A stretch of DNA of 64,000 nt from a candidate division FCPU426 bacterium (GTDB lineage Bacteria; Oederibacteriota; Muellerivitia; Muellerivitales; Muellerivitaceae), in NCBI GenBank assembly GCA_963796105.1, contig CAWCKJ010000002.1:128001-192000 (forward strand), read 5' to 3'. The first letter of the stretch is position 1; each line of letters opens with the position of its first letter. The translations under genes were made by a program, and so were the position numbers. The notes under the pieces are model-generated. The model was not told the origin of the DNA and ran no database searches. It worked only from the letters and a program-made list of their open reading frames with translations. Shown in pieces: positions 25,876 to 61,000 of this stretch.

Positions 25876-25910
25876 AAGCGGTCCTTTTTCAAGAACACTT
25901 CACACACAAA

Positions 25911-25937
25911 GGGGTCAGGCTTACATTTTACACTTTA
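25911..25937 (+). repeat. Solo copy of the tyrosine-transposase TIR
   Basis: GGGGTCAGGCTTACATTTTACACTTTA, one mismatch to 31088-31114. Confidence 0.9.
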
Positions 25938-25949
25938 GGCTAAAACCCT

Positions 25950-26760
25950 TCTCACCACAGGTTCCTGCGGAACCACAGAGTACACGGTAAAGCGTCCTCT
26001 TGGGTACGGCTAAAAACATCAAAACAACAACTTCATCTCACCACATGCCAGCCCTCCATAAAACTAATAGGGGGCTGGTATCGTACCAATCTCCACATAT
26101 GCTTAAAGGAAGATTGGCACAGGGACTCATGCCGAACCACCGTAAGGCTTTAAAGGAAAGTTCGGTACAGATTTACTATAAATCTGCCCCGGCAATCCTC
26201 TCACTCGGCTGGTAGCCTCATGCGGCCTGTATAGCACCGATTTCATTAACTGATTTATGGAAAATCGGCGCAGAGACTCAGCTAAAACAACCATCTTTTA
26301 CCACAGGTTTCTTCGAAACCACAGAGTACACGGTAAAGCGTCCTCTTGGGTACGGCTAAAACATCAAAACAACTACGTCATCTCACCACAGTTGTGCTTC
26401 GCACAGCACAGAGACTCAGCTACTACTTTTGCCACGGATGTAACGATCAACCATAAAAACATATAGAGAGATCGGCACTATACCAGCCCCCGTATCAGCC
26501 TTATGGAAGGCTGGCATGCATGGGATACATGGGATTTTAAGCAACTTCAGATCGTGACAAGAGCTTTGCTCTTGCGCCCGTTGGGCTTTATGGCGCATCC
26601 GCAGGCCTCGGAAAAATGGATTTTCCCGGTGGCCGTCGGTTCCGCCATAGTACACGATCAATAACCAAGGCTTCATTTAAAACTTAGAATTCAAAACTCA
26701 AAATTCATTCTGTAAAGAATGCCTTGCCCATCCCCCTGCATCCCCTGAATCCCAGCTAAA
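25950..26760. repeat. Nested hairpin-repeat cluster 1
   Basis: CCACAGGTT..AACCACAG scaffold units; twin-hairpin elements at 26046-26121 and 26441-26518; 143-bp composite at 26130-26272; 110-bp element at 26550-26659. Confidence 0.85.
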
Positions 26761-26792
26761 ACTCAGTTATTAACTGTTATCGTACGCACAAA

Positions 26793-26841
26793 GGGGTCAG
26801 TGGTTCGAGAACCTCACCATCCGCAGGCATTTTACACTTTA
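26793..26841 (+). repeat. Interrupted solo TIR copy
   Basis: GGGGTCAG [tggttcgagaacctcaccatccgcagg] CATTTTACACTTTA; the insert resembles the REP-like hairpin at 1115-1133. Confidence 0.75.
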
Positions 26842-26936
26842 GCTAATTTTTTATAACTATCGGTAAACCAATGGGTATTCCTACATGAAGGCCGGAATTA
26901 TAGCATAACCATCTTGGAAATGACGTGAAAACCTTA

Positions 26937-27922
26937 CATGCTTCTGTATTAAGTGACCCTTGAAATAAAGGAATACATAGGTATACTGTCCGCTACGGGA
27001 GGTGGTACATGAGCTACCAGCGGATGAAAAGCATTAAAATTCTGAGGAAAATCCACACGGAAGAAGAAGCCCGCCAATGGGTGTGGAGATGCCGTTTCGG
27101 CGGGAAAGACTTTGTTTGTCCCCAATGTGAGGGCGAAAGCTTCTGGCAACACCAGGCCAAGCCTGAAGTGAGGGAATGTGACTATTGCCGGAAACGTCTT
27201 CGGCTTCGCGCCGGGACGATTTTTGAAAGCTCCAAGCTGCCTCTTTTAACCTGGGTCAGGGCCATCAGTTTGATGATGCAGGGCAAACGGGGTATTTCGG
27301 CCCTGGAACTGAAGCGGCATTTAAATCTTTCGGATCATTCGGCATGGCTTCTATTGCATAAGATCCGGGAAGGTCTTAGGCAAAAGGACGAAAGCTATAC
27401 TCTAAAGGGCGTCATTGAGTTGGATGGGGCGGTTTTTGGGAAAAAGGCCAAGGAAAACCAAGTGGAAGTCTTGGTGGCGGTGGAAAGCAAGGAATGGGTG
27501 GATGAGAATGGTTGCAAGAAGGAAAAAGCGGGTTTTGCCAAGGTGAAGGTAGCTATGGAAACCAAGTGGGAGAGCCAGGAATTCGTGAATCAGACTATGG
27601 AAAAAGGCTCTTTCCTCAACACAGATGCTTCGCCAGCCTTGCGTGAACTCAAAGGAGTGGAGGCAGACTACCGGGTGATGGCCAATGACCCGAAAGAGTT
27701 GGAAAGTTGGTTGCCCTGGGTACACCGGTTCATTTCCAACGCCAAGGCCTGGATCATTGGAACTCATCATGGCGTTGATGCTAAGTATTTAGGCCGGTAT
27801 CTAAGTGAATATGCCTATCGGTTCAACCGTCGTCATGATCCCGATTCCTTATTTCACCGTGCTTTGACCGCATGTGCCTTAGCAAAACCCATTACAGCAC
27901 GGTCACTTTGTGCATAAGCATA
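26937..27922 (+). mobile_element. IS1595-family insertion sequence, apparently intact
   Basis: Imperfect TIRs ATGCTTCTGTATTAAGTGACC and GGTCACTTTGTGCATAAGCAT (17/21 match); flanked by 8-bp direct repeat AAACCTTA (26929-26936, 27923-27930). Confidence 0.92.
27009..27917 (+). CDS. tnp: IS1595 (ISXO2-like) DDE transposase
   Basis: Zn ribbon CPQC...CDYC, AGTIF..SKLPL, IELDG, NTD, GTHHGV..KYL..YL.E..YRFNRR. Confidence 0.95.
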   Translation: MSYQRMKSIKILRKIHTEEEARQWVWRCRFGGKDFVCPQCEGESFWQHQAKPEVRECDYCRKRLRLRAGTIFESSKLPLLTWVRAISLMMQGKRGISALELKRHLNLSDHSAWLLLHKIREGLRQKDESYTLKGVIELDGAVFGKKAKENQVEVLVAVESKEWVDENGCKKEKAGFAKVKVAMETKWESQEFVNQTMEKGSFLNTDASPALRELKGVEADYRVMANDPKELESWLPWVHRFISNAKAWIIGTHHGVDAKYLGRYLSEYAYRFNRRHDPDSLFHRALTACALAKPITARSLCA

Positions 27923-28191
27923 AAACCTTATGTTAACTGTTTAACTTTTCTCCCTTCTTTACATTTTTAAGAGTAAAATTCAAGCCATGGGGGGATTTCC
28001 AGAGGGTGTTTTCAGGTCTTTGGGATATGAGATTGACGCCATCAAATGGACGTCGGATTAAGCCTTACTCCTAATTCCTAATTTCTTTTCAGCGGTTCTT
28101 AACTCCTAACCCCGCCATGAAAGCGCCGCCGATACCCCCGGCGTCCGCTTCAGGGTCCTCATTTTTAATGCCTAACTGCTCTTGAGGGGGG

Positions 28192-28593
28192 TTATTTCTT
28201 TTTGCGGGGGCGGGTTTTTGATTTGGATTTACTCACCTTGTATTCAGCGTGGGGTTCTTGAAGACCTGGCGGCAGTATGTTTTGGAGCTTCTGTTTTAAA
28301 ACCGGAAGATCCTTTACCGTTACTCCCCAAACAACTTCAAGGTCTACTTGGAAATAATCATGGACCAGTATATGCCGCATTCCCTGGATGGCATCCCATG
28401 GTACCTCGGAATGTTTATTCCGGAATTCAGGGGGTACTTTATATGCCGCTTCACCCAAGATTTGGAGATAGTGGAGGATATAAACCTGAATCAATTCGTC
28501 TGCATTGAAGGCTTTGCGGCCCTGCGAAGAATATTTCTCGATCCGATGGATGGCATCAAGCATATCCTGGACCCGATTCAAATGGTCCCTCAT
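28192..28593 (-). CDS. hepT: HepT-like HEPN RNase toxin (DUF86) with basic C-terminal tail
   Basis: LQILGEAA, VPW..I.GMRHILVHDYF (RX4HXY). Confidence 0.9.
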   Translation of the reverse strand: MRDHLNRVQDMLDAIHRIEKYSSQGRKAFNADELIQVYILHYLQILGEAAYKVPPEFRNKHSEVPWDAIQGMRHILVHDYFQVDLEVVWGVTVKDLPVLKQKLQNILPPGLQEPHAEYKVSKSKSKTRPRKKK

Positions 28594-28880
28594 AACCGAA
28601 CGGCCTCCTGAAGGACTCTATCACGGAAGGAATCCCGAAGGCCTTTTTCAGATACGACATCAACCGGACGGCCTAAGAGATGTTCCAGGTCCGTTAAAAG
28701 CCCCCCCATATCCAATAAGGTGCGGCCTGGTTCCATGCGGACGAGAAAATCCACATCACTTCGTTTATCCGAGTCTCCGCGAGCAACTGAGCCAAAAACG
28801 CTTATTTCGCGGGCACCATGGCTGCTGGCAAGTTTAAGGATCTTGTTGCGTTTTTTTTGGAGGATTTGACCGATTGTCAT
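28590..28880 (-). CDS. mntA: MNT minimal nucleotidyltransferase antitoxin
   Basis: VFGSVARGD....SDVDFLV, L...LGRPVDVV. Confidence 0.92.
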   Translation of the reverse strand: MTIGQILQKKRNKILKLASSHGAREISVFGSVARGDSDKRSDVDFLVRMEPGRTLLDMGGLLTDLEHLLGRPVDVVSEKGLRDSFRDRVLQEAVRL

Positions 28881-28883
28881 GTT

Positions 28884-29072
28884 TTATCCCGCTCGGTTAA
28901 CTTGCTGAAGGCCTTCCAGGTAACAAGTAATAGCTTCTTTCGCGTTTTCCAAGGCCTCCTTGATGGTCTCACCTTGGGAGAAGCAACCGTCCAAAGCCGG
29001 GACTCGGACATTGAAACCGCCCTCATCGGCATGTGCCAATCGGACATGAAAATAAATCGGGATTGGTACCAT
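28884..29072 (-). CDS. hicB: Short HicB-like antitoxin (no cognate hicA adjacent)
   Basis: DEGGFNVRVPALDGCFSQGETIKEALENAKEAI; ATG at 29072 preferred to the longer ORF start. Confidence 0.8.
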   Translation of the reverse strand: MVPIPIYFHVRLAHADEGGFNVRVPALDGCFSQGETIKEALENAKEAITCYLEGLQQVNRAG

Positions 29073-29187
29073 ACCAGCCACATTAAAGTTTTGTGGAAGG
29101 CTTGCATGTTCCAGAACAACGTCAAGGGACGACCCATTGGGTCGCCACTTGGCCGGGACATGGTCCCCGGCCAAGTACACGGCTTGT

Positions 29188-29205
29188 CCCCGGCTAAAGC
29201 CGGGG
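29188..29205. repeat. IS200/IS605-type end hairpin remnant
   Basis: CCCCGGCTAAAGCCGGGG followed by CCTGAAGGC resembles IS200/IS605 subterminal palindromes; no tnpA/tnpB/iscB adjacent. Confidence 0.45.
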
Positions 29206-29349
29206 CCTGAAGGCAGCCGGTCAAATTTCATGTTGACACCTTTCTAAAAGGCTTCTGATGGCTTCCATCAATCTGCCTTTGAATTGGAATTATAACCTGG
29301 TAAGACACTCATATGGCCAGGGAACATAAAACAGAAGGGGGTCTCTATT

Positions 29350-29994
29350 TTATGTATTCGGCCCTTTGTTATTCGCTTTTTTGAGAAGTTTTCGATAGAG
29401 ACCGCCAAAAGGGCCTTCCAGGGCGCTTTTCTCGAAATATTCCGCTTCTTCCCTCCAAGTCATGCCTTTAGTCGCCTTGTGGATTTTGCGTTGGATCTCT
29501 TCTTTCATTTTTAAGGCATCGAAACCCTTGATGGGCTTAATTTTTTTAATTTTGCGATGCCGCGTTTTTGGTTTGGGTTTACCTGGTTTATATATGGAAT
29601 GGATTTCGTGGAAGCCGGGTGGATTGAATTCTCCAATAGGTAGACGCCGGATTCGGACATCATCTTTCTCAATAATGATGATGGCGCCATTTATAAGAGG
29701 TTCCTCGATGATTGACCAATTTTTTTCAAGGTTACCGGCCAGGTTAGCGACGGTCATTTTTTGCGTGCGGAATATCACGACTGAAGGCCTGGATTTTCCT
29801 GAAAAAGCCAATATTTTCCCAAAATCCAAATCGTGGGTTAAAAGTACAGAACCCCTTGACTCAGCGAGGGATAAAATAACCTCGTCGCCCGCTTTACTAT
29901 GACCAAGTTTTCCTGAGTGTATGGCTTGATGACCAAGGCGGGCCAAGTGCTGGCAAAGTGATGGGGAAAGGTTGTTATCTAAAAAGAATTTCAT
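29350..29994 (-). CDS. DUF5615 PIN-like toxin with long C-terminal extension
   Basis: MKFFLDNNLS...D..IL..A.....LLTHDLDFG...RIRRLPI, followed by about 90 extra aa. Confidence 0.85.
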   Translation of the reverse strand: MKFFLDNNLSPSLCQHLARLGHQAIHSGKLGHSKAGDEVILSLAESRGSVLLTHDLDFGKILAFSGKSRPSVVIFRTQKMTVANLAGNLEKNWSIIEEPLINGAIIIIEKDDVRIRRLPIGEFNPPGFHEIHSIYKPGKPKPKTRHRKIKKIKPIKGFDALKMKEEIQRKIHKATKGMTWREEAEYFEKSALEGPFGGLYRKLLKKANNKGPNT

Positions 29995-30230
29995 GGACGA
30001 GAAGGTATGAAGCGTTCCTCGGCCTCAAGGGAGCAATAGGCCAGGGCCTGAAGGATGTCCTCTTCCTCGAGTTCGGGCCATTCTTTTAGGATTTGGCGAA
30101 TGGTCATACCACCGCTCATGTAAGCCAATATACTGGCCACCGGCATGCGGTAACCCCGAACGCAGGGTTTCCCGAAACATTTTTCCGGATCGAATGTGAT
30201 TCGCTCAAATTTGTAATGGTGGTGTTCCAT
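29991..30230 (-). CDS. DUF433 antitoxin
   Basis: RITFDP..CFGKPCVRG.RMPV..IL...GGMT...IL..WPELEEEDI..AL.Y. Confidence 0.9.
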   Translation of the reverse strand: MEHHHYKFERITFDPEKCFGKPCVRGYRMPVASILAYMSGGMTIRQILKEWPELEEEDILQALAYCSLEAEERFIPSRP

Positions 30231-30322
30231 AACGCTGCCTTTCAGCGGTAATTATAACATTGGATGGGAATGAATGGTATTCGGCAACTCCTAATTCCGA
30301 ATTGCTAATCGTTCTTTAGGAG

Positions 30323-31084
30323 TTATTTCTTTTTACGGGGCCGCGTTTTTGGTTTTCTTTGCCTTTGCACAGATTTACTATAAATCTGCGCCGATCTACC
30401 GTGAAGAGACATTGAGATCGGTGCAATACCAGCCTCTTTAAAGTTTTTTGGAGGGCTGGCATGCGCCGATCTACCGTGAAGAGACATTGAGATCGGTGCA
30501 ATACCAGCCTCTTTAAAGTTTTTTGGAGGGCTGGCATGCGCCGATCTACCGTGAAGAGACATTGAGATCGGTGCAATACCAGCCTCTTTAAAGTTTTTTG
30601 GAGGGCTGGCATGCGCCGATCTACCGTGAAGAGACATTGAGATCGGTGCAATACCAGCCTCTTTAAAGTTTTTTGGAGGGCTGGCATGCGCCGATCTACC
30701 GTGAAGAGACATTGAGATCGGTGCAATACCAGCCTCTTTAAAGTTTTTTGGAGGGCTGGCATGCGCCGATCTACCGTGAAGAGACATTGAGATCGGTGCA
30801 ATACCAGCCTCTTTAAAGTTTTTTGGAGGGCTGGCATGCGCCGATCTACCGTGAAGAGACATTGAGATCGGTGCAATACCAGCCTCTTTAAAGTTTTTTG
30901 GAGGGCTGGCATGCGCCGATCTACCGTGAAGAGACATTGAGATCGGTGCAATACCAGCCTCTTTAAAGTTTTTTGGAGGGCTGGCATGCGCCGGCAATCT
31001 TCTCCTTCGGCTGGTGGCCTCAGGAGGCCGGTATTCAGCGGGGGATTCGTGGACGGCGCCGCCGGACGGCAGGATTTCCAGAAC
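30323..31084 (-). pseudogene. 3' remnant of a HepT-like gene, split by the repeat array and truncated by the transposase TIR
   Basis: 31084-31031 reads VLEILPSGGAVHESPAEY and 30369-30323 reads ...QRKPKTRPRKKK*, mirroring LQNILPPGLQEPHAEYKVSKSKSKTRPRKKK* of 28192..28593. Confidence 0.7.
30387..30986 (-). repeat. Perfect tandem array, 8 x 75 bp, twin-hairpin unit
   Basis: Identical units tgcgccgatct-accgtgaagagacattg-agatcggtgc-aa-taccagcctctttaaagttttttggagggctggca, period 75 bp. Confidence 0.97.
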
Positions 31085-31087
31085 AAA

Positions 31088-32102
31088 GGGGTCAGGCCTA
31101 CATTTTACACTTTACAAATAATTCGCCATTTTTAGAATATGCTTATGCCAAGACCCAGGCGAATTCATTATGAGGGGGCTGTTTACCACGTGACCTCCCG
31201 AGGGAACGAGCGGCGCGAGATTGTCAAGACCGACTCGGACCGATGGATGTTTTACAGACTATTGGGGGAAATGATCGAGGAAAATAAGGTGCTTTGCCAC
31301 GCCTGGGTACTGATGAACAACCATTACCATCTCTTGCTGGAGACGCCCGCAGCCAATCTTTCCATCGCGATGAAGCATTTAAACAGTATTTATACCCAGC
31401 GTTTTAATAAAAAATATCAAAGGGCCGGCCATTTATTCCAGGGGCGGTTCAAGGCCATTGTGGTTGAGAAGGATAGCTACTTGAAAGAGTTATGCCGGTA
31501 TGTGGTTTTGAATCCCGTGAGGGCGAAGGCGGTCAAGGCTCCGGGGGATTGGAAGTGGAGCAGTTACCGCGCGACTGCCGGCCTGGAAAAGGGGGAACCG
31601 TGGCTGGAAACGGATTGGATTCTCAGTCAGTTCGGAAGTACCCTCAATGAGGCACGGAAAAGCTATCGGGCTTTTGTGGCTGGCGGAATCGGGAGCAAGG
31701 TTTCCCCCTGGGAAGAACTTTATTCCCGCGTATATTTGGGAAAAGAGAAATTTTTGATCAAGGTGCATGAGGCGGGGCGAAAGCATAGGCATTTGGATGT
31801 CCCGAAGTACCAGAAACAAGTGGTGAAGGCTGACCCGGAAAAGATTCTCGGGAAAATCGCCGAAGTCTATGGGGGAAAACCCGAGGAGATTTTGCAAGCC
31901 GGAAGAAGGGGGATGGATTCCCGGGACGCGGCGATCTATTTGCTGAAGAGGGAAGCGGGGCTAAGTTTGAGGGAGATCGGCAAAAGGATGGGAGTGGGTT
32001 TTTCGGCGGTTGGGAACCAATGGACCAGGATCAAGAAGAGGATGCCGGTGGACCGGGAATTCGCCAAAAAAGTGCTAAAGTGTAAAATGTAGGCCTGACC
32101 CC
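31088..32102 (+). mobile_element. TIR-flanked Y1 tyrosine-transposase element (TIRYT/RAYT-like)
   Basis: Perfect 27-bp inverted repeats GGGGTCAGGCCTACATTTTACACTTTA (31088-31114) and its reverse complement (32076-32102); the transposase stop codon lies in the right TIR. Confidence 0.9.
31139..32092 (+). CDS. HUH/Y1 (REP-associated-type) tyrosine transposase with C-terminal DnaA-like HTH
   Basis: YHVTSRGN, LMNNHYHLL (HUH), GHLFQGRFKA, YVVLNPVRA, WKWSSY; C-terminal RDAAIYL...GLSL.EIG..MG. Confidence 0.93.
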   Translation: MLMPRPRRIHYEGAVYHVTSRGNERREIVKTDSDRWMFYRLLGEMIEENKVLCHAWVLMNNHYHLLLETPAANLSIAMKHLNSIYTQRFNKKYQRAGHLFQGRFKAIVVEKDSYLKELCRYVVLNPVRAKAVKAPGDWKWSSYRATAGLEKGEPWLETDWILSQFGSTLNEARKSYRAFVAGGIGSKVSPWEELYSRVYLGKEKFLIKVHEAGRKHRHLDVPKYQKQVVKADPEKILGKIAEVYGGKPEEILQAGRRGMDSRDAAIYLLKREAGLSLREIGKRMGVGFSAVGNQWTRIKKRMPVDREFAKKVLKCKM

Positions 32103-32135
32103 ATTGTGGTGTGGGGGGAATGGAGGTTTAAATTG

Positions 32136-32873: not shown

Positions 32874-32904
32874 TAAGGAAAATTAAAACTTAAACAACTT
32901 CAAT

Positions 32905-34005
32905 TTCACCACAGGTTTCTTCGAAACCACATGCCGAACCTCATTTAAGCATTCAATGAAAGTTCGGTACAGATTTACTATAAATCTGCCCCTGCAATCC
33001 TCTCACTCGGCTGGTAGCCTCATGCGGCCTGTATAGCACCGATTTCTTTAACTGCTTTATGGTGAATCGGCGCAGAGTACACGGTAAAACATTCTCTTGG
33101 GTACAGCTAAAACATCAAAACAACTACGTCATCTCACCACATGCCAGCCCGCCATAAAACTAATAGGGTGGCTGGTATCATACCAATCTCCACATATGCT
33201 TAAAGGAAGATTGGCACAGGGACTCAGCTACTTCAACAACATTTAACCACAGGTTCCTGCGGAACCACATGCCGAACCTCATTTAAGCATTCAATGAAAG
33301 TTCGGTACAGATTTACTATAAATCTGCCCCTGCAATCCTCTCACTCGGCTGGTAGCCTCATGCGGCCTGTATAGCACCGATTTCTTTAACCGCTTTATGG
33401 TGAATCGGCGCAGAGTACACGGTAAAACATTCTCTTGGGTACAGCTAAAACATCAAAACAACTACGTCATCTCACCATCCCACTATGCTCTATGAGCTTC
33501 GATGGACAGGCAGCTTCAGATCGTGACAAGAGCATGGCTCTTGCGCCCTGCGGTCTTTATGGCGCATCCAAAGGCCTCGGAAAAATGGATTTTCCCGAAG
33601 GCCGTCGGTTACGCCATAGTACACGATCTATACATAACCTCTAACCTCTGAAAAAGTCGGCCATCGCCTCCTTTTTCAGAAAACAAATTATGGAAACCCC
33701 ACGATTTCCTGCGGAAATCTTTGGGGTCGAAACCTCTGTTGGCCGCTTTTAATAGTTTTTCAGAGGTTTCAACCTTTTAAATCTTCTACTGTGATGCGTT
33801 AGCACTGTGGTTCCCGTAGGAACCTGTACCGATCATCCATAAAAATTTAGAGAGATCGGCACTATACCAGCCCCCATATCAGCCTTATGGAAGGCTGGCA
33901 TGTGGTTAATCTGTTTATCCCCTGCATCCCCTGAATCCCAGCTAAGATACTTTTTTTTCCTGTGTTGCGTTAGCACTGTGGTTCTGTAAGAACCCGTGGT
34001 GAATC
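32905..34005. repeat. Nested hairpin-repeat cluster 2
   Basis: 143-bp composites at 32932-33074 and 33270-33412; twin-hairpin elements at 33142-33218 and 33827-33902; 110-bp element at 33519-33628; TIR-bounded segment at 33643-33768. Confidence 0.85.
33643..33768. mobile_element. Putative MITE
   Basis: 13-bp terminal inverted repeat AACCTCTGAAAAA...TTTTTCAGAGGTT, internal hairpins, no ORF. Confidence 0.5.
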
Positions 34006-34095
34006 CGGGCATTGGCGGAAACCTTTGTTCCCCCAGTGGAAAGTTGTACAATGATTTTGATGGTTTTGGTGGTTGAAAATCGGAAAGGGGAAGCC

Positions 34096-34302
34096 ATGCG
34101 ACAAGTTCTTATTTACCCAGGAGAAGACGGTTATTGGGTGGCTGAATGTCCCAGCCTTCCGGGCTGTATTAGCCAAGGAAAGACACGGGAAAAAGCGATT
34201 CAAAACATCAAGGAAGCCATTGAAGGTTATATCGCCTCATTGAAAGACGACCATATCAGCATTCCCAAGGAACATTTCGAGGCCATGTTAGTAGCCATAT
34301 GA
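34096..34302 (+). CDS. hicB: HicB antitoxin
   Basis: EDGYWVAECPSLPGCISQGKTREKAIQNIKEAIEGY. Confidence 0.9.
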   Translation: MRQVLIYPGEDGYWVAECPSLPGCISQGKTREKAIQNIKEAIEGYIASLKDDHISIPKEHFEAMLVAI

Positions 34303-34520
34303 GTAAACTCCCCCGTTTATCGGGAAGGGAATGCGTTCAGGCACTTTCCAAAGTCGGCTATGTTTTTGTCCGGCAACATTCTTCCCATATCATCCTCCGC
34401 CGTAAAGAACCCTTTTCACAATTGACAGTGCCGGACCACAAGGAATTGGACCGAGGCACACTCCGCGCGATCATCCGGCAAGCTGGTTTGCAGGTGGAGG
34501 GTTTTACAAAATTATCATAA
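34299..34520 (+). CDS. hicA: HicA toxin
   Basis: LSGRE..QAL.K.G..FVRQ.SSHI.L...LTVPDHKELDRGTLRAII. Confidence 0.9.
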   Translation: MSKLPRLSGRECVQALSKVGYVFVRQHSSHIILRRKEPFSQLTVPDHKELDRGTLRAIIRQAGLQVEGFTKLS

Positions 34521-36213: not shown

Positions 36214-36344
36214 AAAAGCAAACCTTACCTTGCGGCCTACGAGACTTTGATACTGGGGGGGGTGTTCTTCGGGCTGGCTTACAGGAGAATCGGGAAAATA
36301 CGTAGAAAAATATAATTTTGAATTGAAGGAAAAAACCACATATC

Positions 36345-36850
36345 AACACAGGTTCTTTCAGAACCACAGCAACAACCTTGATTTAATACGGCTAAAAAAT
36401 ATCAAAAGCAACAACTTCAACATTTAACCACAGGTTCTTTCAGAACCACAGTAACATCCTCAATTTGGTACGGCTAAAAACATCAAAACAACAACATCAT
36501 CTCACCACAGGTTTCTTCGAAACCACATGCCGAACCTCATTTAAGCATTCAATGAAAGTTCGGTACAGATTTACTATAAATCTGCCCCGGCAATTCTCTC
36601 ACTCGGCTGGTAGCCTCATGCGGCCTGTATAGCACCGATTTCCTTAACCGATTTATGGAAAATCGGCGCAGAGACTCAGCTAAAACATTCTATGGGTTGC
36701 GGCTAAAAACATCAAAACAACAACATCATCTCACCACGGGTTCCCGCGGAACCACAGCAACAACCTCGATTTAAAACGGCTAAAAAATATCAAAAGCAAC
36801 AACTACAGATAACCCCTTACCAAGGCACGGGTTTCTTCGAAACCACAGTA
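36345..36850. repeat. Nested hairpin-repeat cluster 3: about five ~80-bp scaffold units, one carrying the 143-bp composite (36528-36670)
   Basis: Recurring CAC(A/G)GGTTYY-N3-RRAACCACAG ... CGGCTAAAAA(C/AT)ATCAAAA(G)CAACAAC. Confidence 0.85.
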
Positions 36851-36914: not shown

Positions 36915-37205
36915 TTATTTTGATTTTGGGGATAAATCCATGGCGCCGTGGACAACAGCCAAGACATCTATTTGATCGGATTTAATCCGGTAAAAAATGC
37001 GGTAGGGGCCTTCTATGACTTCTCGTATTTGATCCGCGTCAAACTCCGGTACTCTGCGGCCGGATGTGGGAAAATCGGCAATTTGTTTGGACCTGCCGGT
37101 AAGGCGATCGACCATCCGTTTAGCGTAATCCGCTGAATCCCGAGCGATATGGGCGTGGAGCGCGTTGAGATGGTCTTCAGCCGAGTGAGTCCAACGGACC
37201 CTCAT
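36915..37205 (-). CDS. RelE/ParE-family toxin
   Basis: VRWT..A...L..L...IA.DS...A, FP.SGR.VPE, RE.I...YRI.Y, VLAVVHG. Confidence 0.9.
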   Translation of the reverse strand: MRVRWTHSAEDHLNALHAHIARDSADYAKRMVDRLTGRSKQIADFPTSGRRVPEFDADQIREVIEGPYRIFYRIKSDQIDVLAVVHGAMDLSPKSK

Positions 37206-37390
37206 CCAGGAAGACCGTATTTGGCCCGGATATCTCCTACGTCTTTAGTAAGACCAGCTTCGCTATCGGAAAGCCCCCGCTCAATGGCTTCCAAGACATA
37301 GATCTTGTGCATTAAATCATCCCATGTGGCGTTTGAGGGCATTTGGTCAATCAGTTTGTGAGCCTCTTCTTTTTTCATGATCTTGGACAT
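37202..37390 (-). CDS. Antitoxin partner of the ParE toxin
   Basis: KEEA.KLID.MP.NATWDDLM..IYV...IERGL.D..AG; overlaps the toxin start. Confidence 0.8.
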   Translation of the reverse strand: MSKIMKKEEAHKLIDQMPSNATWDDLMHKIYVLEAIERGLSDSEAGLTKDVGDIRAKYGLPG

Positions 37391-37508
37391 GGGTTGCCTC
37401 CCGCTTTCATAATGTAGTTTATCAAGATGAAATACCCAAATCAATTCGGGCTGAAATGATTGAAAAGGCCAATCCCCGCGTTTAAAACTATAAATCGAGA
37501 AACAGGAA

Positions 37509-41566: not shown

Positions 41567-42715
41567 CTAAATCAAAACACCTTTTATCAAATCTCGGACT
41601 TTCTCGCCCGAGGTTTTCCAATTCAACCTTTGGGAATATTCCCCGAAAGAGGAAAGGGCCAGCCGCTCATATTCCTTGGGGTCTGTCATGAGCCTGGTGA
41701 TGAAATCGCAATAGGCTTCGGGGCCGGCATTGACCGGGAAGGTTTGGCCGTTTTTGCCGTTGAGGATGACGGAGGGGACCCCCCCGATCCGGGGCGCCAG
41801 GGAGGGCAGGCCGAAGGACGAGGCCTCGGCGAAGACGATGCCGAAACACTCAGCCCTGGTCGGCACCACCAGGAAATGGGCCTGGGAGTACAAGTCGTCC
41901 AGCTTTTTCCGGCCCTCGCCCGTCTTTTTGGATAGGACTCCATGCCGTTTCACGAAATCAGGCAGGGGGCCTGGCGGCTCGCAGCCTACCACGTCCAATT
42001 GGGTCTTGATCCCGCGGTTGTTCATTTCCTCCGCGATTTTCAGGGCGGTGTCCCCGCCCTTCCAGCGCCAATTCCCGCCGATGAAAAGCAGTTTGCAGGA
42101 ACCGAAACTTTTGGAAGCGGTGATTTTCTTGACCATGGAAGTGTCCCGGCCGCATTCCAGGTTCGCCCCAAAGGGCACGACCTTCACCTTCGCTGGGTCC
42201 AGGCCGTAGTCCTTGACCGCGGAGTCCGCGGCCCATTTCGTGCTGAAAATGGCCAGGCGGCACTTGTTGAGGAACAATTGTTCCGTCAGGTTCCCATCCC
42301 TCAGGGATTCCGCCGGCAGGTTGGAATCATAGGCCGGGATGAACTCACCCCATCCGGCGAAGGTGAAATCGCTCCAATAGATAACGGGTTTGGTTGTTTG
42401 CAAATAAGAAAAAGGCGCGGAACCGCCGATCACGAAAACGGCGTCGCTTTCGACTTTCAAGAGGGCTTGATCCGCCCGGCGGCACAAATGCCGGACCAAG
42501 GGCGGGTATCGCAGCCGGTCGAAATCCCTTCGCTGGAAGGCCTTGTACAGAAGCTGTTTTGCCCGGGAAGTCAGGAAATGGAATCCCTCGCCCAGGTTTC
42601 CGATGGGGATGGTGGTTATACCGGCGCCGGTCAAGGCGCGGTTCATGTAATAGGCCGTCCCGGACCAGACCGACAGGTTCGAGGAATCGTCCTTGGTGAT
42701 GTAGGCTAAACGCAT
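41567..42715 (-). CDS. GT4 glycosyltransferase, tandem paralogue 3
   Basis: MRLAY...WSG, KVVPFGANL, KGG..A, PTRAECFGIVFAEASSFG; start moved to MRLAY because the ORF extension is heptamer repeat. Confidence 0.9.
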   Translation of the reverse strand: MRLAYITKDDSSNLSVWSGTAYYMNRALTGAGITTIPIGNLGEGFHFLTSRAKQLLYKAFQRRDFDRLRYPPLVRHLCRRADQALLKVESDAVFVIGGSAPFSYLQTTKPVIYWSDFTFAGWGEFIPAYDSNLPAESLRDGNLTEQLFLNKCRLAIFSTKWAADSAVKDYGLDPAKVKVVPFGANLECGRDTSMVKKITASKSFGSCKLLFIGGNWRWKGGDTALKIAEEMNNRGIKTQLDVVGCEPPGPLPDFVKRHGVLSKKTGEGRKKLDDLYSQAHFLVVPTRAECFGIVFAEASSFGLPSLAPRIGGVPSVILNGKNGQTFPVNAGPEAYCDFITRLMTDPKEYERLALSSFGEYSQRLNWKTSGEKVRDLIKGVLI

Positions 42716-42732
42716 GGAACCTCGGTAAAAAA

Positions 42733-42832
42733 CAATGAAAAATGAACAATGAAAAATGAAAATCGAAAAGATTTCTTCTTTCACTTTTCGCATAGCCGCT
42801 CATTATCAATTGTTCATTATACATTTTTCATT
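42733..42832. repeat. Inverted heptamer bracket between GT4 paralogues
   Basis: (C/A)AATGAA x4, a ~36-bp core, then a TTCATT-type arm; near-identical to 44001-44107. Confidence 0.85.
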
Positions 42833-43983
42833 ATATTCTTCGTACCGCAGTGCTTGTGGATGAGATCCCTCACCTTTTTTCCCGAGGTTTCCCAGTTTAA
42901 CCGTTGCTGGTATTCCTTTAAGGAGGAAAGGCACAGCTTTTCATAGAGGTTCTTGTTTTTCATGAGACCCGCGATGTACCCGCTGTAGGCCTCAGGGCCG
43001 GCTTTGAGCGGGAAGGTCCGGCCGTTTTTACCGTCCCGGATGACTGAGGGAACGCCCCCGATCTTGGGCGCGAGGGAGGGAACCCCGAAGGACGAGGCCT
43101 CGGCGAAGACGATCCCGAAAGCCTCCGACCGGGTGGGCAGGATCAGGAAATGGGCTTTGGCGTACAGCTCATCCAATTTCTCCCGCCCTTGCCTGGTTTT
43201 CTTGGAGATGAAACCGTGGGGTTGGACGAAGCCGGGGACGGGGCTAGGCGGTTCGCAGCCAACGACATGCAATACAGTCTTGATCCCGCGCCGGTTGAGA
43301 AGCTCCGCAGTTTTCAAGGCGGTTTCCCCGCCTTTCCAATGCCAATTCGTCCCAACGAACAACAATTCGCAGGCATGGGCGCTTTTCCCCGCGATGATTT
43401 TCCTGACAGAGGAAGAGTCCCGATCACATTCCAGGTTCGCCCCGAAAGGCACGATTTTGACTTTCTTGGGATCGAGATCATAGTGCCGGAAGGCGGTCTT
43501 CGCGGCCCAATCGGAGCTGAAGACGACCAAACGGCATTTGGAAAGGAACTCCTGCTCCATTTTTATTTCGTCCCGGATCGTCTCGGAACAAAGACGGGAG
43601 TGGTAGGGATTAAAATCCACCAGGGAGGCGAGTGTGGAGTCCGCCCAAAAAACGATGGGATTATCCGTCCGGGAAAAGGAAAGGGGAAGGGGATCCACGC
43701 AAAAAATCGCGTCATAAGTCTGGGATAAAAGGGCCTTCTCGATTTGCCGGTAAAAGTGCCGGTTCAGCGCGGGATCGCCTTGCCGAAGGTATTCCCTGGA
43801 AAGAACAAATTTATAGAGGACTTTCTTGATTCCGGTGGATAGGTAATGCCAGCCCTCCTTCAGGCGATCGACCGGGAGGATCTGGAGACCTGCTTGCTCC
43901 AACGAGTGCCTCATGTAGAAGGCGGTGCCGGACCAGTAGTTGATATCGGAAGAATCCCCGATGGAAACGTAGGCTAGGCGCAT
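42817..43983 (-). CDS. GT4 glycosyltransferase, tandem paralogue 2
   Basis: Same motifs as neighbours (PTRSEAFGIVFAEASSFG). Confidence 0.9.
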   Translation of the reverse strand: MRLAYVSIGDSSDINYWSGTAFYMRHSLEQAGLQILPVDRLKEGWHYLSTGIKKVLYKFVLSREYLRQGDPALNRHFYRQIEKALLSQTYDAIFCVDPLPLSFSRTDNPIVFWADSTLASLVDFNPYHSRLCSETIRDEIKMEQEFLSKCRLVVFSSDWAAKTAFRHYDLDPKKVKIVPFGANLECDRDSSSVRKIIAGKSAHACELLFVGTNWHWKGGETALKTAELLNRRGIKTVLHVVGCEPPSPVPGFVQPHGFISKKTRQGREKLDELYAKAHFLILPTRSEAFGIVFAEASSFGVPSLAPKIGGVPSVIRDGKNGRTFPLKAGPEAYSGYIAGLMKNKNLYEKLCLSSLKEYQQRLNWETSGKKVRDLIHKHCGTKNIMKNV

Positions 43984-44000
43984 GAAACCTCGGTAAAAAA

Positions 44001-44107
44001 CAATGAAAAATGAACAATGAAGAATGAAAAATGAAAATCGAAAAGATTTCTTCTTTCGCTTTTCGCATTGCCGCTCATTATCAATTGTTCATTATACATT
44101 TTTCATT
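44001..44107. repeat. Inverted heptamer bracket between GT4 paralogues
   Basis: Same as 42733-42832 with one extra heptamer (GAATGAA). Confidence 0.85.
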
Positions 44108-45258
44108 GTAACTTTCGGTTTGCAGTGCTTGAGGATGAGATCCCTCATCTTTTTACCGGAGGTCTTCCAATTCAAGCGCTCCTCGTATTCCCTGAAGGAG
44201 GAAAGGCATAGTCTTTCATAGCGCTTCCTCTCTTTCATGAGCTTGGCAATGTAACCGCAATAGGCCTCGGGAGGGGCGCCGGGGGGGAAGATCTGGCCGT
44301 TCTTACCGTTATGCACGGCCGTGGAATTACCGCCCACGTCCGCGGACAAGGAAGGCAGGCCGAAAGAGGAGGCCTCGGCGAAGGTGACGGCGCAGCAATC
44401 CGCCCTGGAGGGAAGCAGCAAGAAATGGGATTCGGAATACAATGCGTCCAAAAACCTGCGGCCCCTTCCGGTATTTTTGGACAGGAACCCATGGCGCCGA
44501 ACGAAACCAGGCGTGGGGCCAGGCGGTTCGCATCCCACCACGTGCAACAGCGTCTTGATGCCGCGCTGGTTGAGAAGCTCCGCCGTCCGCACCGCCAAAT
44601 CCCCGCCTTTCCTTTCCCACTGAACCCCGACGAACAATAATACGCAGGGATCGAAATAGCGGCCCGCGATGATTTTCTTGACCGCGGGAAGGTCCCGGCC
44701 GCATTCCAGGTTTGCCCCGAATGGAACGACTTTCACCTTTTTAGGGTCGACATCATAGTGCTGGAGGGCGGTCTCGGCCGCCCAGTCGGAACTGAAAACG
44801 GCCAGGCGGCACTTGGAAAGGAGCTTCCGCTCCATATTCATCTCATCGCGGATCGTCTCGGCGCACAGGCGGGTGTGCTGGGGATAATAATCCACCAAAG
44901 CCGGGAAGACGCAGTCGTGCCAATAGACGACCGGTTTATCCGTTTCCAGGGAGGAGAGGGGAAGGGTGTCCACGCCGAAAACAACGTCGGGCTCTATGGC
45001 GGAGATGGCTTTTCCGGCCTGGCGGCTTAAGCTTTTAAGCAGGGAAGGGTCCCCATGCCTGTGATAATTTTTCCGCAGGAACAGTTGATAAAGGAATTTT
45101 TTCAAATGGGTCGTCAGGTATAGGAAGCCTTCTTTCAATGGACCGGCGGGGATGACCTCCAGTCCGCTTTCCCGCAGGGAGCGGTGGATATAGTGGGTCA
45201 AGCCGGACCAATCATCCTGATCCGAGGGATCTTTACGAGTCAAATACGCTAATTTCAT
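44092..45258 (-). CDS. GT4 glycosyltransferase, tandem paralogue 1
   Basis: MKLAY...WSG, PSRADCCAVTFAEASSFG. Confidence 0.9.
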   Translation of the reverse strand: MKLAYLTRKDPSDQDDWSGLTHYIHRSLRESGLEVIPAGPLKEGFLYLTTHLKKFLYQLFLRKNYHRHGDPSLLKSLSRQAGKAISAIEPDVVFGVDTLPLSSLETDKPVVYWHDCVFPALVDYYPQHTRLCAETIRDEMNMERKLLSKCRLAVFSSDWAAETALQHYDVDPKKVKVVPFGANLECGRDLPAVKKIIAGRYFDPCVLLFVGVQWERKGGDLAVRTAELLNQRGIKTLLHVVGCEPPGPTPGFVRRHGFLSKNTGRGRRFLDALYSESHFLLLPSRADCCAVTFAEASSFGLPSLSADVGGNSTAVHNGKNGQIFPPGAPPEAYCGYIAKLMKERKRYERLCLSSFREYEERLNWKTSGKKMRDLILKHCKPKVTMKNV

Positions 45259-55067: not shown

Positions 55068-58000
55068 ATGAATCAATTGATTAAATTGAATCGGATATTT
55101 TTAATCACGGTGCTTTTGCTTTTCCCTGCGGCGATTACGCTCGCCGACTTCAACCTGGGCATCATCTCGGCAATAAAAAATGAGCTGAAGTTCAAGCCGG
55201 AAGCAACTCCCCCGACCCCAACCCCGACCAATTTCGGGGGCTACACCAGCACCCCGACCGACACCCCCATGCCTACCTTGACTGACACCCCTACTTACAC
55301 GTTGACGGAAACTTCGACCGAAACGCACACCAAAACCCCGACGCTCACTAACACCTCCACCGACACATTCACAAAAACACCCACTCCTACGCTGACGGCG
55401 TCAAATACTCCTACGGACACGATGACGCCGACTTCATCCTTTACTGCCACACCCACCGCCACGGCAACCCCGACGCCTACCGCCACCTCCACCTTTACAT
55501 TCACTCATACCCCAACCAATACTCCTGCGGTTACAAACACTCCTACTGACACAATGACGCCCACCTTAACGGATACGACTACGCCGACACCGTCGGCTAC
55601 GTCCACCGCTACGGCAACGCCGACCTATACCAACACGTTTACAAACACATTAACGCCCTCGAACACAATAACGAATACCCCGACTGTCACCAATACGCCA
55701 ACGACCACCGATACCCCGACTAACACACCGACCGTTACAAACACACCCACCAACTCGCCTACGGTCACGAACACTCCGACTCAAACCCCGACTATCACGA
55801 ACACCCCTACCAACACACCGACCATTACGAACACGCCCACCAATACGCCAACGACCACCGATACCCCGACTAACACACCGACCGTTACAAACACACCCAC
55901 CAACTCGCCTACGGTCACGAACACTCCGACTCAAACCCCGACTATCACGAACACCCCTACCAACACACCGACCATTACGAACACGCCCACCAATACGCCA
56001 ACGACCACCGATACCCCGACTAACACACCGACCGTTACAAACACACCCACCAACTCGCCTACGGTCACCAATACCTCGACTCAAACCCCGACTATCACGA
56101 ACACCCCTACCAACACACCGACTATCACCAATACCCCAACTAACACACCGACCATTACAAACACACCCACCAACTCGCCTACGATCGCAAACACTTCGAC
56201 TCAAACCCCGACTATCACGAACACCCCTACCAACACACCGACTATCACCAATACCCCAACTAACACACCGACCATTACAAACACACCCACCAACTCGCCT
56301 ACGGTCACAAACACTTCGACTCAAACCCCGACTATCACGAACACCTCTACCAACACACCAACTATTACTAACACGCCCACCAACACGCCAACGACCACCA
56401 ATACCCCGACTAACACACCAACCATTACCAACACGCCAACGATCACCAATACCCCGACTAACACACCGACCGTTACAAACACAACCACCAACTCGCCTAC
56501 GGTCACAAACACTTCGACTCAAACCCCGACTATCACAAAAACCCCTACCAACACACCGACTATTACAAACACGTCTACAAATACCGTAACTAATACTCCG
56601 ACAGCCACTCCCACCTATACGAACACTTCCACTTACACCTACAGCTACACCCAAACGGCGACGGATACGACTACGCCGACACCGTCGGCTACGCTCACCG
56701 CAACGCCAACGCTGACCGATACCAGTACATCAACAAATGCTCCTACGGATACGCCCACGAACCTGGGAGGATATACAAGTACGCCAACTGACACTCCCAC
56801 GCCTACCCCGACCAATTTCGGGGGCTACACCAGCACCCCGACAAACACCCAGACTCCAACGGATACCCAAACCGACACTACAACCAATACTCCAACGAGT
56901 ACTTCCACGAACACTTTGATACCCACGGATACTCCTTCCAATTCGCCAACGAATTCAACCACCGCGACGCCTACAACTACTAACACCTTCACGCCCTCCA
57001 GCACAAATACCTCCTCAAACACCTCGACTCCAACCGCGACTTCTACTTCCACGACAACAGCCACGAACTCGCCCACCAATACATTTACCATTACTCCTTC
57101 ACCCACGGTCACGAGCACTCCGACGGTCACCTATTCGCCCACGAATACCTTCACGCCGACGAATACTTCCACGCCGACGCCGGATCCTTATGTCATCACG
57201 GGAACAGCGCAATACACTGGACCCAACAATACCTCAGGGAAATATCTGCTGGTGTGGGCAACCACCAACCTCAACGGAAACGGCAACTCGGCGTCCGTGG
57301 CGTTGACACCTTCCGCCAGCCCCATTCCATACACGCTTAATCTTCCCGGACCGGGGAATTACATCGTTCTGGCTTTCTTGACGAGCTCGCAAAATTTCAA
57401 TAACGGGGGGCCGTCCGCTGGCGACCCCTATATGATTTACGGCGGAACCACCAACGCCTGTCTTACATCCGGAACGCCTACAACCCTAGTATTTGCCGCG
57501 CCGGGGCCCTCGACGCAAACCGCCAACCTGAGTTTCGACAACGGGTGCATGATATACGGAGTTTCAGGGCCCATTACCTTCACCGGAACCGGCGCTGTCA
57601 ACGGGCACAATTCTTTGTACGTCCAGGGGTATATTGATCAGAATTACTTGACCCCGGTGAGCGGAGGGTCCAAATCGGCTACGGTGAATGGGGGCACTTA
57701 CAGCGTGTTGAGTCTGTCCGGGGCCGCTTCGATCTGGCTCCAGGCCTATTACGATCAATCTGGAAACGGGGGCAACGGGCCGGCGACCTGCGATCCCGTG
57801 ACGAACTGGGGGCCTGTGTCGGTGGGAAATACAGCTGTCTCGAATTACGGGATTACCTTGACCAGCCAAAACCTATACAACTGCAATAGCAGTTTATCCG
57901 GGCTCGTCTATTATTCAGGAATCGGGTCTGTCGGGCCGTCACATCCCATCGTGATCAGGGCCGTTACCTGCTCAGGAAACGGGGGATGCAATACTATCGC

Positions 58001-61000
58001 GGACGCGGTCGTGACTCAAAGCGGGGGGACATATTTCGTGGGCCTCCCTAACGGATCCTATTACATCACTGAGGAATACGTGGCAGACGCTGGGGCCTCC
58101 TGGTCAAACGGATCCTATGCCATGGGCAGTTATGTGCAGAATTCCGACGGGTCCTGTTGCGGGAGCGGGCCTAGTGGCTACAGCACCCCGGTTGTAGTTA
58201 ACAATTCCACTGTGAAGGACCTGAGTTTCTCGAGCAGCTGCCAGCAAATAGAGGGCTTCACAGGAACCCTGACCTATACCGGTTCCCAGGGAAGCCCAAC
58301 CTGCAACAACGGACCCAACACGGAAATATGGGTCATGGCAGTGACCCAGGCCGCCCCTGACATTGAAAACGGTAATATGGCGAATGTCTGCGATAACGGT
58401 GACACTTACTCGATTGAGATAGGCGGTTTGTGCTCTGGACCGATTACCTCCACCTATTACCTGAGGGCCTGGTTCGACAATGCGGGGGCCAACGCGACAA
58501 GCTGCTGCCAGGGGCCTGTGGCAGGGGAGCCATGGACGGTGCTGGGGCCATATACGCCCAGCGCCAATCCCACGCCGATCAATATCAGCATCGGCGATTC
58601 CAACACCTGGGTACCGCCGGTCAGCACTCCCACGGATATCACCAACAATATCAATGGTTCATGTGTGTTTGGAAACACCAATGGACTCGCCGACAGCTAC
58701 AGCGTGACGGTTTACAGCCAAGCCGACAGCATCACCACCACTTACGGATCCGGGGCGGGCGACGCCGTATACTCCTTCACGCTAAGCCAGCCCACCAACC
58801 TATTCTTGAACCTCTGCGGGGCGTCCGGCAACGGTTTCAATTCACCGGTGCTATACCTGATGACGGATTTGACGCATACCAGCACGACGTTCGCCTTGGA
58901 TGAGAACTCGGCGTACTGTTCGGATCATTCCCCCGCGTTGGTGACAGGGCTCCTTCAGCCGGGGACCTACTACGCGATAGTGGACGGGACGCAAGCGGGT
59001 GATTCAGGAAACTTCAACTTGTGCGTAAACACCTTCAATCCCAACTGCTCGCTGAACCCCGTATCGACTCCGGTGACGCTGGGGGCGGGAGTCACGACCG
59101 GGGGATTGGGGACGGTGACGGCGGACGCGGCGGGAGCGGGACATGTGGATTGGAATTTCGAGTACACGAACAGCTGGACCTTCACTCCAGGGGTTGCGGG
59201 CAACTACCAGATTTCGCTGGACTGTTTCGACGACGGATCAAACAAGGCCCAAGTGGCTTACGATTTGTACGACTCAACCGGCAACCCCATAGCGACCTCC
59301 AACGGGAATGACAACCTGGACCAATTGACGCTGAGCTTGACCCAACAGCAATACACGGTGGTGGTATTCCCGCCGAACGAGAATGAGCCGAGCGGGGACT
59401 ATCGACTGGTGATCCAGACATCAAACTCCACGCCGACACTTACCCCCACACCGACCAACTCTCTCACCTCCACCCCGACAGGTTCAGCCACGGCCACGCC
59501 CACGATTACGCCAACGATTACTCTGACTCCGACTCAAACCTCCACCCCGACCGTGACGAGCACTCCGACCCAGACCTCCACGCCCACCATCGATCCCTAC
59601 GTTATCACCGGGCAGATCACCTACAACGGCGGTAATTCCCAAGCAGGACTAAATCTGCTGGCCTTCGCGACCACCTGCCTAAACGGTTGCAACGGCAACG
59701 GCAAAATGGTTTTTGATCTCCACTCTCCTCCCGGCCCCGTCGACTACACTCTAAACCTTCCGGGACCTGGCCAATACACCTTGGGCGTCTTCCTGACTGC
59801 CAATACGAGTCTTCAAAACCAATCTCCTAACGTAGGGGATTCTTACGCGGTTTATAACAGCTCGGGGAACGTGTGCTTAGGTCAAAGCCCTACGACCATC
59901 GATATGAGTTCTCCCTCTACCCAAACAGTGAACCTTACCTTCGGGGATTCCTGCCAGTTCTATGGGGTTTCTGGAACCATTCATTACAACGGCAGCGGTC
60001 AGGTAAATGGCAGTAACCGACTCAGGGTGATGGGTTATCTTGATTCCAATTATTTGACGCCCGTGGCCGGCGGGGGAAATGACGGAGTCTCGGTTAATGG
60101 CGGATCCTACCAAGTGGTCAATATGTCGGGCTCGAGTCAGATGTACCTTCAGGCTTATTACGACGCTGGCGGCAACGCCAGCAACGGCGTGACCAATTGC
60201 GATCCATATATCAACCTCGGTCAAGTCACATCAAATCCGCCCAGCACCGGATATAACATCACCTTTGATGGTTCCAACCTATACAACTGCACGAATACCC
60301 TGTCAGGAAATGTCAACTTTAATGGAACAGGATCGGTCAGCCCATCGAATCCCATTATCGTGCGGGCATGGTCCTGCACCATATCAGGACCCTCCACCAA
60401 TTGCGGTCCGGCGGCTTACAGCGTTGTGACTTCTAACCACGGAAGTTACTTTATGGGAATGCCCAATACGGGCAATTACTACGTGACCGAGGAATACGTT
60501 GCCTCCGCGGGCGCTTCTTGGTCCCCAGGGAGCTACGCCATCGGGAGCTACATCCAAAACTCTAATGGCGCCTGTTGCGGTGGACCCAACGGAATGGGAA
60601 ACCCTATCAATGTCAGCAGCGCGGTGGTAACCAATTTGACCTTTAGCGACTCCTGTACGCAAATCAAGGGCTTTATTGGAACCCTTAGCTACAACGGCTC
60701 CCAGGGCGGTCCTTCCTGTAACAACGGAGCGAGTACTCAAATTTGGGTTATGGCGGTTACTCAGACCGCCCCGGACACCGAGAACAATTACATGACCAAT
60801 GTCTGCGATAACGGAGACAACTACTCGATGGAGATGGGCGGTTTGTGCTCGGGTCAGTATGGGACCTCCTATTATCTGAGGGCTTGGTTTGACAGCGCTG
60901 GGGTGAATTCGAACAGTTGTTGCCAGGGGCCTGCGGCAGGTGAACCCTGGACGGTGCTGGGGCCTTTTACCGTTACGGCAAACCCAACCCCCATCAATAT

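Follow-up and report, generated by a model that had tools for sequence, protein, structure and literature searches.

An eight-unit array of a CA-targeted hairpin element beside a TIRYT gene: insertion followed by local duplication as the favoured reading

MITEs of DDE-type IS are short, non-coding elements that carry inverted ends, are flanked by a 2-bp direct repeat and have recognizable empty sites. A second group of small repeats is built from hairpins. In Escherichia coli, BIME-2 elements are REP/iREP doublets with two inverted homologous hairpins, which are present in many extragenic copies and form arrays that are uniform at each locus and differ between loci, as expected from spread followed by local amplification (PMC3333891). 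The same account calls both the mechanism and the frequency of BIME array formation unknown. In Pseudomonas fluorescens SBW25, the doublet acts as the unit, and REPINs form two sorts of cluster, some of ordered tandem units and others of unrelated copies that are inserted into or beside each other (PMC3116915). The TIRYT/TIRtron class is described in PMC3733652 and constitutes subclass 2.1.2 of TnpA-Y1 in PMC6006769; in what the latter reports, no REP-like sequences were found near subclass 2.1 genes. General background is available in 10.1101/2021.07.10.451892 and PMC5581495.

The array described here is located in a window of 64,000 nucleotides (the whole stretch of DNA that was analyzed), which is part of contig C2 of a 4.98-Mb genome in 16 contigs. 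It consists of a short repeat, element A, and lies beside a TIRtron.

30387..30986, minus strand: tandem array of 8 identical 75-bp units (73-bp element A plus CA), from the sequence and TRF
30389..30461, minus strand: one element A, with hairpin H1 (30461-30427), a 3-nt centre and hairpin H2 (30423-30389), the inverted homologue of H1
30987..30993, minus strand: target CA and 5 flanking bases, a 7-bp perfect match with the unit end
31083..31114, plus strand: left TIR of the TIRtron, with a GGGGWSAS core
31139..32092, plus strand: TIRYT-type Y1 HUH transposase of 317 aa, with the HUH motif at 61-64, Tyr121 and a C-terminal DnaA_C-like HTH
32076..32107, minus strand: right TIR, 31 of 32 bases complementary

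The units share a single distinct sequence and are followed by a 7-nt partial unit, TGCGCCG; TRF reports 8.1 copies with 100% matches and a score of 1214. The initial annotation had described eight invariant 75-bp copies beside a tyrosine transposase, about 100 bp from its left TIR, and this description holds, with 96 bp between the last full unit and the left TIR and 153 bp between the array and the nearest TIRYT gene. Its minus-strand junction rule is likewise borne out, as every junction consists of element end, CA and element start. Because CA stands on both sides of the element, the unit is more precisely a 73-bp element plus one dinucleotide. On either strand, the fold of the array unit is better than that of any of 200 shuffled sequences (z -4.2 and -3.7). 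Its sequence is unique to its locus, and the best copy elsewhere in the genome reaches 59.5 of 73; given this lack of a close copy, the eight copies derive from a local one. A coding array was rejected: 75 is divisible by 3 and two frames are open, yet the sister eight-unit array, which lies within G000:C2:120560-121210, has a period of 76. A CRISPR array was also rejected, because the units are identical end to end and leave no unique spacers.

What is element A? An iterated profile search finds 198 copies at 169 loci of the genome, of which 160 are single and nine are multi-unit (2, 7, 2, 3, 8, 8, 3, 3 and 2 units). The element of ~73 bp contains two hairpins with 8-bp stems and AT-rich loops of ~20 nt, separated by a 3-nt centre. 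The two hairpins are homologous and inverted relative to each other, with similar arm profiles, and the stems vary by compensating pairs. At stem pair 2, hairpin 1 has G-T in 83 of the 91 units that could be parsed and hairpin 2 has A-C in 71 of them, with 27 of 118 distinct units left without a parse; each strand thus carries one wobble-paired hairpin. Tandem arrays of element A are uniform inside a locus and differ between loci. Five solo copies surround the array in the window.

26046..26119, plus strand: solo element A, CA on both sides
26444..26516, minus strand: solo element A
29034..29105, minus strand: solo element A, degenerate
33142..33216, plus strand: solo element A
33828..33900, minus strand: solo element A

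The element A pattern was built from this genome and favours its kin. It is present in 22 of 30 members of the same bacterial family and in 0 of 68 genomes outside it, and a reversed-pattern control gives 0. The plasmids and viral contigs searched contain no match, and the five Rfam matches are all far below the gathering threshold. No description of the family was found in a literature search that covered main texts, largely outside subscription journals. At one site in this genome (G000:C3:306772-307985), a 282-aa ORF lies between two identical elements in inverted orientation. In three loci of relatives (L038, L039 and L040, near 5000), element dimers sit at CATG joining the stop and start codons of operon genes, and both codons are apparently preserved by the repeated bases.

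Element A is a true insertion: the dinucleotide is doubled at filled sites and single at empty sites, and the element takes one orientation. The flanks form a 2-bp YR repeat, with CA on both sides in 106 of 132 distinct copies, CG in 11, TA in 3 and other pairs in 12; thus, the earlier claim that the array occupies a CA target like the solo copies stands as a family rule. Twenty of 84 flank joins were found elsewhere in the genome with one dinucleotide, none with two and none without any. When orientation was assigned from the interior alone, which left 33 copies beyond assignment, 104 copies comprised 88 CA/CA, 9 CG/CG, 7 other and 0 TG/TG. The CG/CG copies are one related group at one target type and may therefore reflect one event. 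In relatives, CA is on the left in 48 of 49 pattern matches (a count in which one locus appears two times and dimers contribute their second units as well), and the pattern itself did not demand CA.

The insertion site of the array is the centre of another small repeat, element B, which adds to the initial annotation.

30370..30388, plus strand: element B hairpin half, palindrome CAGATTT...AAATCTG, ending in the dinucleotide that borders the array
30989..31032, plus strand: second, diverged half of element B, from comparison with uninterrupted copies
32970..33032, plus strand: uninterrupted element B (empty-site paralogue), itself within the centre of an element A
26168-26230, 33308-33370 and 36566-36628: further uninterrupted element B copies

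Element B is also uninterrupted elsewhere in the genome. Insertion of A in B is found at two loci in this genome, at two in the sister genome G001 and at none in 29 other family genomes. Both loci in this genome are perfect eight-unit arrays; their units differ, and at each locus 7 bp of the flank match the unit end. Arrays of at least 7 units thus occupy 2 of 2 A-in-B loci and 1 of 167 other loci (p 2e-4, post hoc). The A-in-B copies of G001 are both single and mismatched at the end-match position, in an assembly of 60 contigs whose single copies may be collapsed arrays. One sister-genome copy at the same site type is 91% identical, and the 20 and 15 kb examined there contain no TIRYT. An end match of at least 6 bp is present at 3 of 5 clean multimers and 2 of 76 solos in this genome (p about 0.001, with a post hoc threshold and 4 of 85 loci dropped). 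The same comparison is weak in relatives (2 of 4 multimers and 9 of 41, p 0.25), where some multimers were miscalled as single, and the 7-unit array has an end match of just 3 bp.

Small hairpin modules also accumulate around the array. The window contains intergenic stacks of such modules at 25900-26800, 32880-33480 and 36330-36760, mostly CA-bounded and nested (A in B, B in A, and short hairpins set into a simple-repeat skeleton). Two TIR-like remnants lie in the first stack, at 25905 and at 26786, the latter split by a short hairpin at CA. The 25905 remnant is 94% complementary to the right TIR (32075-32108), and a 6.2-kb composite of toxin-antitoxin genes, an IS1595 gene and the array between them (25905-32107) is formally possible. 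Small toxin-antitoxin-like pairs surround the array (28192-30230, 34012-34520 and 36915-37444), with Pfam assignments of HepT/nucleotidyltransferase and DUF433/DUF5615; the pairs at 34012 and 36915 have no NCBIfam match. Farther along the window, 41586-44943 and 55200-61100 contain three diverged 1.27-kb repeats, two with 7-bp tandem-repeat flanks, and long Thr/Pro-rich coding repeats. The whole genome has at least 83 non-coding tandem arrays, which belong to several families unrelated to each other and have periods of 42-53 bp, among others. It also has two CRISPR-like arrays, on C2 near 364 kb and on C16 near 43-46 kb, and about 53 copies of one IS1595-type gene.

How did one element become eight? 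We propose a single insertion, after which the end match seeded local duplication in steps; the adjacent transposase gene would probably have played no part in making the array. We give this reading a probability of roughly 0.55. In general, hairpins and short matches favour slippage. The element would have been inserted by a strand-specific enzyme acting in trans, with an HUH enzyme as the leading candidate. The 7 bp that unit end and flank share, drawn close by the two hairpins, would then seed the first duplication by replication slippage, and further slippage or unequal recombination would expand the perfect 75-bp repeats, recently enough that no unit has mutated yet. Slippage via the TGCGCCG microhomology, which the initial annotation had listed as the alternative, fits better than a rolling circle in view of the end matches at multimers. 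The 7-unit array has the order BBABBAA, mixed and not periodic, which requires several duplication steps and which one circle cannot template. The 4-unit array in the related genome G014 is a mosaic, and unrelated non-coding repeat families of this genome form near-perfect arrays of up to 12.6 copies. Against slippage alone, all clean arrays keep the exact element phase, and an enzyme cutting at CA would give the same result. The proposed account also offers no reason for two independent arrays of exactly 8 units, and the 7-bp match may be a result of exchange instead of its cause, as the G001 solos are mismatched there.

Repeated insertion may make a separate contribution to the family. Unlike neighbouring units in relatives have identities of 0.64-0.71, compared with a background mean of 0.65; at the level of sequence identity, this demonstrates that element A copies arise next to existing ones by insertion or by very ancient duplication. 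For the present array, serial insertion of free copies is unlikely, since its unit is found nowhere else in the genome. Of the two enzymatic routes first suggested, serial re-insertion therefore survives as a property of the family, and a single rolling circle fails as a general route on the order BBABBAA.

The main rival to local duplication, which we consider possible but doubtful, is that insertion of the element and in-place addition of units are both the work of an HUH enzyme, likeliest a TIRYT whose gene may lie anywhere in the genome. A nick at CA, extension by the host polymerase, and a second nick with strand transfer would add one unit, as in the nick-primed BIME model of Fig. 7B in PMC3333891. 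Strict orientation (88 CA/CA and 0 TG/TG), compensating stem pairs with a G-T wobble kept on one strand of each hairpin, and the exact phase throughout all arrays speak for such an enzyme, and a TnpAREP with cleavage at CA is known (PMC8266576). Matched CG/CG and TA/TA flanks, however, fit a 2-bp target duplication better than single-strand cut-and-join.

The Y1 domain of the gene next to the array matches PF01797 (5e-13) and exceeds the NF047646 cut-off, the HUH and Tyr motifs are intact, and the HTH matches PF08299 with an E value of 2.8e-5, which is below the curated cut-off. By its Y1 domain, weak DnaA_C-like HTH and TIRs, the gene matches a TIRYT/TIRtron member of subclass 2.1.2; solved structures give no sequence match. 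We know of no substrate of TIRYT enzymes. The genome has 12 full-length TIRYT-type genes over the NF047646 cut-off, in addition to fragments and two IS200-type genes, and the distance tests use 13 TIRYT loci (12 full and 1 truncated). TIRYT-type and IS200-type genes are the only Y1 genes detected in this genome (G000), and TIRYT is the only Y1 class detected in G000, G001 and G014 together, which favours action in trans. TIR-like remnants among the CA-delimited modules at 25905 and 26786 point the same way. However, element arms and TIRs have no sequence in common: the TIR search matches no array unit, and the arm profile is unlike the TIR. One TIRYT copy (G000:C4:1337272-1338930) has TIR-bounded tandem duplications of 377 bp and 119 bp, and copies in relatives (L014, L016 and L017) have such duplications of 13-188 bp, which suggests one-ended or replicative events at TIRtron ends. 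A 25-bp hairpin lies inside one TIR of several TIRYT copies (8 matches, e.g. C3:665958 and C11:133279).

Searches for another cognate gene returned no candidate. No family dominates among the 327 ORFs neighbouring element A, close element pairs enclose no such gene, and the 41 element loci of relatives have none in common. A longer form of element A that carries a gene was not seen, and inspection of 48 arm-like hits outside elements revealed no gene-bearing partner. A non-autonomous IS200/IS605 derivative was rejected on two grounds, that is, the resident IS200 end hairpins differ on inspection from those of element A, and the dinucleotide is repeated. A MITE of a DDE IS was rejected as well; the target duplication and empty sites are present, but strict orientation is maintained (88 CA/CA, 0 TG/TG of 104) and no IS has matching ends among the 7 multicopy DDE-type families compared. 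Integron attC sites differ from element A, which has two hairpins and is free of cassette-like gene association.

Seventeen element loci lie within 3 kb of TIRYT genes versus 3.0 expected under a uniform null, which did not serve as the main test, since IS and elements are concentrated in shared islands. Elements near TIRYTs (5 of 13) are marginally enriched over all ORFs (16.5%, p 0.049) and do not differ significantly from those near IS1595-like genes (12 of 53, p 0.29). Non-coding arrays of any family abut TIRYTs in 4 of 13 cases and other IS pooled in 8 of 90 (p 0.043), and they abut at the same rate the elements that we take to be IS21-like (4 of 13) and IS3-like (3 of 10), the IS labels other than IS1595 being our assumption. 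In G001, an element is 77 bp away from a TIRYT fragment of 35 codons. Across 31 genomes, the numbers of elements and Y1 genes correlate weakly (rho 0.40, p 0.027; 0.34, p 0.068 without G000), in kin that are not independent, and the counts are discordant in G067 (20 Y1 matches and 3 elements) and in G069 and G004 (98-99% complete), where elements are present but Y1 matches are absent. Element A is missing within 1.5 kb of all 19 TIRYT loci of relatives, 7 of them from element-carrying genomes, a further point against action in trans. A fair reading is that elements and TIRYTs share residence in variable islands, with TIRYT action in trans possible. If TIRYTs do act on it, element A would be the first identified non-autonomous substrate of TIRYT (subclass 2.1), in a GTAG-independent, CA-targeted BIME system with the enzyme in trans, nested hairpin modules, a 2-bp duplication and in-place amplification, perhaps by doubling (1-2-4-8); we regard this larger claim as speculative.

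It is improbable that the copy number is an assembly product in which the 8 units stand for a dimer or short array in the actual DNA. Such an error could explain the same count of 8 in two perfect arrays, and a strict junction pattern matched this genome alone among 31. That pattern was too strict, though, and missed the multimers of G014 and G001. Moreover, 30 full-length, ~100% identical IS copies were placed, all of them at least 2 kb away from contig ends, near-perfect arrays that range from 2.6 to 12.6 copies argue against a cap at 8, and the mixed-variant array was resolved. Near-identical IS away from contig ends and arrays of varied size suggest that the assembly was made from long reads. 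Short reads bear on the junction directly. A 105-bp contig from a run that may not be independent of the assembly's sample matches 30870-30974 at 100% identity and crosses a head-to-tail junction, covering 42 bases on one side and 63 on the other. Its length equals 75+30, as would be expected from a looped 31-mer graph, and would imply at least two adjacent copies in real DNA; its depth of 3.9 was not used as a copy number, as one read pair can yield 3.9. The best sequencing run contained 0.11 of the words, as contigs only, and in the region of the second array two runs cover an IS1595-type gene and not the array, which is neutral as to its copy number.

A stronger form of the HUH account, advanced in the initial annotation, has the adjacent TIRYT acting in cis and the array as one rolling-circle concatemer. 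The short distance of 96 bp to the TIR, eight identical units, intact catalytic motifs and the TIR-bounded partial duplications at other TIRYT copies would suit it. A link between such arrays and related transposases, which the initial annotation named as a check, was not supported across loci. Among the nine multi-unit loci, the distance to a TIRYT is less than 1 kb for the present array alone, 2 kb for another and at least 13 kb for the other seven. None of 10 tandem-junction loci from two public collections has a TIRYT in the 2-10 kb examined, nor does any of the 41 element loci of relatives that include these 10, and 0 of 19 TIRYT loci of relatives have the element within 1.5 kb. Arrays abut TIRYTs no more often than IS21-like or IS3-like elements, and BBABBAA is not periodic. 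The second perfect eight-unit array, 20.9 kb from the nearest TIRYT, largely refutes a rolling circle in cis, which we consider very unlikely, and the neighbouring transposase gene is probably a bystander. Least credible is maintenance of the array by selection, as a tract that binds protein or blocks transcription upstream of the transposase: the array does lie between a DUF433 gene and the TIRYT gene, whose starts diverge, but its undiverged units mark it as recent, it is not conserved beside the TIRYTs of relatives, and 160 of 169 loci are single.

With insertion and local duplication as the preferred reading, the family offers clean boundaries, empty sites, strict orientation, and single and amplified forms of one site type. 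The mixed array records its own duplication steps, and the choice between enzyme and slippage becomes testable. If slippage alone explains the array, it is an ordinary variable-number repeat, and the novelty is confined to the repeat family. Element A shares the short length, non-coding character, inverted ends, direct repeat and empty sites of MITEs but is strictly oriented at an asymmetric target, and each of its arms is itself a hairpin. The BIME analogy drawn at the outset is supported by the inverted hairpin doublets and by arrays uniform within loci. In comparison with BIME-2 as described in PMC3333891, element A lacks the GTAG tag (GTAG near the hairpin foot in 2 of 132 copies, CGTC in 1 of 132), is bounded by CA or another YR on both sides and not by CT, has its hairpins at its very ends and forms units without a linker, and no REP-flanked RAYT was found in its genome. 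No REPtron, that is, a cognate RAYT flanked by repeats, was found, and 0 of 19 TIRYT loci of relatives are flanked. The SBW25 clusters described in PMC3116915 lie beside their cognate single-copy RAYT and their tandem units include flanking DNA, whereas element A flanks no gene family consistently and its units contain no flank. The neighbouring gene resembles the TIRtrons of PMC3733652 in its Y1 domain, C-terminal DnaA_C-like HTH and GGGGWSAS TIRs; the repeat families of those TIRtrons are TIR copies, unlike element A. Thus, while the element differs in its tag, its boundary and the absent REPtron, the arrangement is already known in kind from uniform BIME-2 arrays and REPIN clusters.
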